Translations under genes and position numbers: made by a program
Assembly: GCF_003334765.1 (NCBI RefSeq)
Contig: NZ_QOWT01000084.1
Reading direction: 5' to 3' (one strand)
DNA from: Escherichia coli
Lineage (GTDB): Bacteria; Pseudomonadota; Gammaproteobacteria; Enterobacterales; Enterobacteriaceae
Length of the DNA stretch: 1,168 nt
The notes under the pieces: model-generated
What the model was told of the DNA's origin: nothing
The model's database searches: none
Seen by the model: only the letters and a program-made list of their open reading frames with translations
In this document: piece after piece, positions 768-1,092 of the stretch
Layout: each line of letters opens with the position of its first letter
Position numbering within the stretch: position 1 is the stretch's first letter

Positions 768-1092
768 CAATATATTTTTCTTTAAACTCTATAATAAATT
801 GTGGCACAAATTTCTCTAAATAGCTATAACGAATACTGCTACATATCCGATAACATCAGTGATTATCTTCTTCCTGATTGCAAAAGAATCTGCCTCTAAC
901 CCATATATTTTATCTTACACAGCATCCTTAACAAAAGCTGTTATGATATAATTTACCATAAATATAATCTCATTTTGTCTAAGCTAGTATCCAGGATATT
1001 TGGGAGGAGACTTTGGATACCAGGACAGGAAAAGACTAGCAAATGTTGAGCATTCTCTGTAAGTGATGAAGATAAATAAAATTTTGGGAACA
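768..1092. other. AT-rich non-coding spacer between the int terminator and the IS1 end
   Basis: No ATG-initiated ORF of meaningful length on either strand (six-frame track is empty here; my manual scan found only ORFs of 17 codons or fewer). Hand count over 771-1090 gives about 221 A+T out of 320 (~69%), versus roughly balanced composition across most of the int coding region. Confidence 0.6.

Follow-up and report, generated by a model that had tools for sequence, protein, structure and literature searches.

Organization of the locus

The window, that is, the whole stretch of DNA analysed, is 1,168 nucleotides long and opens, on the + strand, with a gene for a P4-type tyrosine integrase, of which it contains the 3' two-thirds (positions 1–735, with an open reading frame from 37 to 735), as annotated by RefSeq in 042, 55989 and other strains. 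The product, WP_001218809.1, has 420 amino acids, its stop codon lies at 733–735 and, according to the RefSeq annotation of the source genomes, the immediate neighbour of the gene is a tRNA-Phe gene, either pheU or pheV. A terminator scan detected a G+C-rich hairpin between A and T runs at 734–765, built on a perfect 12-bp inverted repeat (736–747/752–763). This hairpin is the predicted terminator of the integrase gene; it could terminate transcription in both directions and would stop integrase read-through from entering the DNA beyond it. There, between 766 and 1092, lies an AT-rich non-coding spacer of 327 bp without any annotated feature and with a G+C content of 31%, versus 48% in the integrase gene. 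The spacer ends at the left end (IRL) of an IS1A copy (1093–1168, + strand), which begins with GGTGATGCTGCC at 1093 and has the same orientation as the promoter-like motif described below. The GTG start of insA is at 1148, reading from left to right, and the weak promoter-like site of IS1 itself, CTGCCA-16-TATGAT, is located at 1100–1127.

We searched the spacer for RNA and protein families. At the gathering score no Rfam family was found in it, and at a permissive threshold only sub-threshold, terminator-driven matches appeared, those in the 900–1092 region being limited to a chance-level pan motif (E = 0.83). Likewise, NCBIfam and PHROGs gave no protein family in the five of six translation frames of the spacer that were searched. 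Frame 1 of the + strand and the complementary − strand frame of 766–1092 have 4 stops in 109 codons, while ~8.5 are expected for the base composition. We considered a decayed coding region on account of the few stops in these two complementary frames, yet discarded it since neither NCBIfam nor PHROGs produced a match.

An extended −10 motif directed toward IS1

The + strand of the spacer carries an extended −10 motif, TGaTATAAT (TGATATAAT), at 944–952, with exactly the sequence and coordinates given in the first-pass annotation. Direct reading places the TG at 944–945 (−15/−14), an A at 946 and the hexamer at 947–952, which agrees with TATAAT at 6/6 positions. The stretch from −23 to −17 (936–942) reads AGCTGTT, with 4/7 A/T and a T at both −17 and −18. 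The earlier observation that no −35 element stands at 17 bp also held: the hexamers at spacings of 16, 17 and 18 bp are TCCTTA, ATCCTT and CATCCT, each with at most 2/6 matches to TTGACA, and the TTAACA at 928–933 is only 13 bp 5' of the −10 hexamer. A consensus promoter scan of the window did not call the motif.

From the usual distance between the −10 element and +1, transcription is predicted to start at A958 or A960 on the + strand, 6–8 nt past the hexamer, which leaves 134 nt to the IRL and 189 nt to the GTG of insA. The motif does face the IRL at 1093, as had been proposed, and a terminator scan from 952 to 1093 revealed no terminator-like site. The motif shares the orientation of insA and has a terminator-free path to the IRL.

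Chance expectation and competing promoter-like sites

The pattern TGNTATAAT is expected 0.10 times per window when both strands are counted, and 19 of 200 shuffled sequences held at least one occurrence. Restricting the count to the 31% G+C spacer lowers the expected number to 0.067 (P = 0.066), a 1-in-15 event, and to 0.032 if only its + strand is considered. Across the AT-rich stretches of loci L001–L087 we counted 12 such motifs in ~49 kb, 7 of them copies of the same site. The count is compatible with chance and not clearly more than chance, a 1-in-15 event being unremarkable for a genome scan. Two further perfect TATAAT hexamers, absent from the first-pass annotation, lie on the + strand of the spacer, at 790–795 and 963–968. 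All three perfect hexamers in the spacer are therefore on the + strand (3 observed vs 0.56 expected, post hoc P = 0.014), an excess that could hint at selection for rightward transcription.

We then ranked the promoter-like sites with a two-hexamer score, which is rough and additive, uses textbook consensus frequencies, undervalues the TG element and serves as a ranking aid only. By this score the 944–952 motif comes 18th in the window. It is outscored by an overlapping + strand candidate, TTATGA-16-TATAAT (941–968, hexamer 963–968), whose TTATGA overlaps the TG of the motif, and also by the promoter-like site of IS1 at 1100–1127. The best site within the spacer is on the − strand, TTGTTA-16-TAAAAT (907–934), which points leftwards (934–907) to the hairpin at 765–734, followed in that direction by TTATTTTAAT; this geometry would suit an RNA of ~140–170 nt ending beside the integrase stop. 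AT-rich DNA is usually full of promoter look-alikes, and by this rough measure the spacer is crowded with them on both strands, at scores equal to or better than that of the motif.

Distribution and conservation of the spacer

Of 5426 complete E. coli genomes, 51 contain the spacer, in each case on the chromosome and behind this integrase; among its carriers are 042, the O104:H4 outbreak lineage, 55989, E24377A and UMNK88. The copies are nearly uniform, 49 with at least 99% identity and 2 with 97%, and a distant-mode search of the E. coli genomes returned nothing beyond these same 51 near-identical copies. Neither the plasmid collection nor the viral contigs contained it, and 80 loci surrounding related integrases of other species lacked it as well. 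In L008, the closest of them (94.7% nucleotide identity), homology ends at 783, just past the terminator. Five metagenomic contigs carried the spacer, showing only the two junctions already known and nothing new downstream. Its distribution is thus very narrow and nearly clonal.

In the two 97% copies the motif is intact among 9–10 differences, which include C957T and a 1-bp insertion at the predicted start. At ~3% divergence nine bases are expected to remain unchanged ~76% of the time; conservation of the motif is uninformative, since no copy of the spacer falls below 97% identity over its whole length. In strain DLI.5a the spacer carries, besides IS1, a copy of ISKpn26 (IS5 family) inserted at 987/988, 35 bp 3' of the motif (L002, 6248–7445), indicating that the stretch tolerates disruption.

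Junctions between the spacer and its right flank

The exact IS1 junction of the window was found in 42 of the 51 spacer-bearing genomes. In 042 this IS1 has no target-site duplication, its left flank being TTGGGAACA and its right flank CCCTCTCTG (1084–1100 of the window; L001, 7115–7140). To the right of IS1 lies a 5'-truncated YagK/YfjJ fragment, frameshifted within a C-run (L005, 5329–5711). When the two frames are joined across the C-run they give a 127-aa product that matches Pfam PF11726 (YagK/YfjJ C-terminal domain) with E = 3.4e-8, over model positions 28–133 of 170. Because the match starts at model position 28, the 5' end of the gene is missing, cut exactly at the IS1 boundary. The lack of a target duplication, together with a gene fragment cut at the IS1 end, points to a loss or exchange of DNA here. 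The 87-aa hypothetical protein WP_001387038.1, which we considered as a target gene for the motif, turned out to be the out-of-frame tail of this truncated YagK/YfjJ (inovirus Gp2 family) fragment and was rejected.

Seven genomes (55989, UMNK88, UPEC69, H3, ETEC1749, HSP425 and AF58) lack IS1 at this position. Their junction reads gggaacaGGTGATGgctgatttt, the 55989-type junction being gggaacaGGTGATGgctg (L005, 5318–5345), and these alleles retain two IS1 bases. A deletion between the TGATG at IS1 positions 3–7 and the TGATG in the right flank (ccctctcTGATGgctg) recreates the IS1-free junction exactly, and for this reason we take the IS1-free alleles to be secondary losses of IS1 rather than empty sites.

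The two remaining genomes, Rb-50 and CH4784, have the same integrase and spacer (97% identical) followed by a different cargo, namely an enolase-superfamily gene, an SDR oxidoreductase, an MFS transporter and a GntR regulator (L003, 6354–6400; L004, 6328–6372). Their homology with the window breaks no more than 2 bp from the IS1 end, and the stop codon of the convergent enolase-like gene lies ~40 bp past the junction. This break suggests that cargo exchange in the island was mediated by IS1. The simplest history that we infer from these junctions starts with an IS1 insertion into an arrangement like that of Rb-50; an exchange or deletion mediated by this IS1 would then have introduced the cargo seen today. 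At locus L005 the island also contains a remnant of a ColE1-type plasmid replicon, recognised as Rfam RNAI (RF00106, 59.9 bits; L005, 5998–6103), beside which the sequence resembles an RNAII/ori region (L005, 5800–6140). The 48-aa "replication initiation protein" coding sequence annotated there (L005, 5817–5963) lies across this non-coding origin DNA and was probably called in error.

Absence of a gene downstream of the motif

Whether the spacer is joined to IS1 (42 genomes), to the deletion scar (7) or to the DNA with the convergent gene (2), no gene begins on the + strand after the motif, and neither a gene nor a small RNA nor an open reading frame was found downstream of it in any allele. 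The sequence, context and distribution of the motif, like this absence of a downstream gene in every allele, are direct observations. The first-pass annotation had offered two origins for the motif, the orphaned promoter of a gene displaced by IS1 or a chance match in AT-rich DNA, and had proposed to look in IS1-free loci for a gene start after the motif. No such start exists in the seven scar alleles or in the two convergent-gene alleles; what the IS1-free loci show instead of a displaced gene is a deletion scar and the 5'-truncated YagK/YfjJ fragment. The chance match agrees with the statistics (P ~0.07) and with the narrow, nearly clonal distribution of the spacer, and it is the better of the two explanations.

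On the orphaned-promoter view, a + strand gene lying right of 1092 was once transcribed from the motif and then removed by an IS1-associated rearrangement. The missing target-site duplication (left TTGGGAACA, right CCCTCTCTG) and a right flank consisting of a gene fragment cut at the IS1 end, with DNA lost or exchanged, are what such an event would leave behind. However, the only alleles that continue past 1092 without a trace of IS1, those of Rb-50 and CH4784, run into a convergent stop codon after ~40 bp; the island-type homology breaks exactly at the IS1 end, which fits an IS1 insertion into an Rb-50-like arrangement followed by cargo exchange; and neither metagenomes, plasmids and viral contigs nor the 80 integrase-relative loci offered another context. 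We therefore hold a displaced gene to be very unlikely. The probability is smaller still that the motif is the promoter of an unannotated small RNA or small open reading frame within 958–1092, for which the candidates are tiny open reading frames around or just past the GGGAGGAG box (1002–1009), or a hairpin at 984–1023. This Shine-Dalgarno-like GGGAGGAG does lie ~45 nt past the predicted start, a 10-bp inverted repeat occupies 984–993/1014–1023, and TATAAT hexamers are enriched on the + strand. Against these features, the candidate reading frames have just 7–24 codons and the translated spacer has no protein family match in the five frames searched, there is neither a terminator downstream nor an Rfam match, the fold is weaker than that of shuffled sequence, the stretch is broken by ISKpn26 in one genome, and no homologue exists beyond the 51 near-identical copies.

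The fold was evaluated on the predicted transcript 958–1168, which was less stable than shuffled sequence (z = +1.92). This value gives no sign of a fold-back hiding the insA start in the transcript. The repeat arms, CTAGTATCCA and TGGATACCAG (984–1023, 90% complementary), enclose GGGAGGAG and form the only stable hairpin in the predicted transcript.

Comparison with known systems

Extended −10 (TGn) sigma-70 promoters form a class in which the −35 element is dispensable. Our motif resembles them in the TG one base 5' of the −10, the perfect TATAAT, the lack of a recognisable −35 and the T at −17/−18, and differs in that the known members have mapped starts and a gene, whereas the motif has a predicted start and is followed by no gene, small RNA or open reading frame in any allele. 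A perfect TGnTATAAT is a strong core element among extended −10 promoters, and real, even substantial, activity is therefore possible.

The motif also recalls the happenstance promoters of foreign DNA. Sequences similar to the −10 element are frequent in AT-rich horizontally acquired DNA, where the resulting spurious transcription is normally suppressed by H-NS (PMC7229825, PMC3923964); TGn motifs occur among these spurious promoters and an A or T at −17/−18 is stimulatory (PMC7229825). The spacer has the marks of such xenogeneic AT-rich DNA, given its 31% G+C, which puts its A+T share well above that of the host genome, its place beside the tRNA-Phe integrase and its presence in 51/5426 genomes. 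As in the H-NS-suppressed cases (PMC7229825, PMC3923964), we find a foreign segment of 31% G+C in a tRNA-linked island, a −10-like element without a proper −35 and many competing promoter-like sites on both strands. In contrast, the happenstance promoters studied so far are mostly intragenic and have an AT-tract at −17 to −23, whereas this motif is intergenic and has a TG instead, with 4/7 A/T in that stretch.

Concerning the neighbouring IS1, transcription entering the element from flanking DNA is known to alter its transposition: in a 2025 study, a terminator that blocked upstream transcription lowered the transposition of chromosomal IS1 (PMC12428005). Judging by its title, as cited in PMC12428005, an earlier study (Machida et al. 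1983, Cell 34:135) had reported that read-through represses IS1 cointegration, so the direction of the effect appears to differ between the two. The motif is like these read-in cases in having the insA orientation and lying 134 nt from the IRL with no terminator between, and in the present setting the integrase terminator shields the IS from transcription further upstream. It is unlike them in that they had a known gene promoter and a measured effect on transposition, while here both the promoter activity and its effect are hypothetical. As for published start sites, we found no chromosomal data for O104:H4, 042, 55989 or E24377A, and only those of plasmid pAA have been reported (PMC5066232); in that dRNA-seq study of O104:H4 strain LB226692, with TEX+ and TEX− libraries, reads were mapped to the chromosome and start sites were reported for pAA alone (PMC5066232). 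Positions 955–965 of the window correspond to ~942,625–942,635 on the reverse strand of the O104:H4 genome 2011C-3493 (NC_018658.1).

Interpretation of the motif

In our view the motif is probably a perfect extended −10 that arose by chance in AT-rich foreign DNA between the integrase terminator and the cargo of a tRNA-Phe genomic island, a happenstance promoter-like element that serves no identifiable gene. RNA polymerase carrying sigma-70 (or sigma-38) would use the TG at −15/−14 and the consensus −10 without a −35, the T at −17/−18 would assist, and initiation would take place near A958–A960, at a level that H-NS would keep low in vivo, as it would at other such sites in AT-rich foreign DNA. 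The transcript would then run through 134 nt of non-coding DNA before entering IS1 in sense orientation and would reach the insA start 189 nt from its own 5' end, supplementing the weak promoter of IS1. Since the integrase terminator lies upstream, sites in the spacer such as this one are the only candidates for driving transcription into this IS1 copy from outside. The steps of initiation, silencing by H-NS and any effect on IS1 are ones that we infer. Some initiation seems plausible in view of the TG at −15/−14, the T at −17/−18 and the consensus −10. On the other hand, a site with no −35 and a mixed −17 to −23 stretch (AGCTGTT) is unlikely to be a strong promoter, and AGCTGTT, being unlike the clean AT-tract of typical happenstance promoters, counts against the happenstance reading as well.

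How active the site may be separates this reading from two others. The match could be inert, with RNA polymerase showing no measurable initiation here under any condition for want of a −35, an UP element or a clean AT-tract, which we judge rather unlikely. The −35 region is ATCCTT and the two-hexamer score is low, the consensus scan does not call the site and the −17 to −23 stretch is only 4/7 A/T; yet the TG at −15/−14 would by itself recruit polymerase, as it does in extended −10 promoters generally. The literature on spurious promoters can be read both ways on this point, for −10 elements alone are stated to be non-functional while a T at −17/−18 is reported as stimulatory (PMC7229825). At the opposite end, the 944–952 site and its neighbour at 963–968 might together act as a promoter that supplies most of the insA/insAB' transcription reaching the island-borne IS1 copy from outside, a copy common to O104:H4, 042 and E24377A, and so tune its activity or stability. 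To this we give only a slim chance. If it were true, rearrangements of the tRNA-Phe island would be affected, such as the loss of IS1 in the 55989-type genomes.

Under the favoured reading, that of a happenstance element, the motif is an ordinary feature of an already known kind. Should it be active, it would add another spurious promoter to those known from AT-rich foreign DNA and another example to the cases of flanking transcription into IS1, both of which have been described before. The more useful result is a negative one, namely that an annotation of the motif as a displaced gene's promoter would be unwarranted. A further consequence concerns the use of the "IS1-free" alleles as ancestral references for the island in O104:H4, 55989 and 042, which calls for caution because these alleles are deletion scars.
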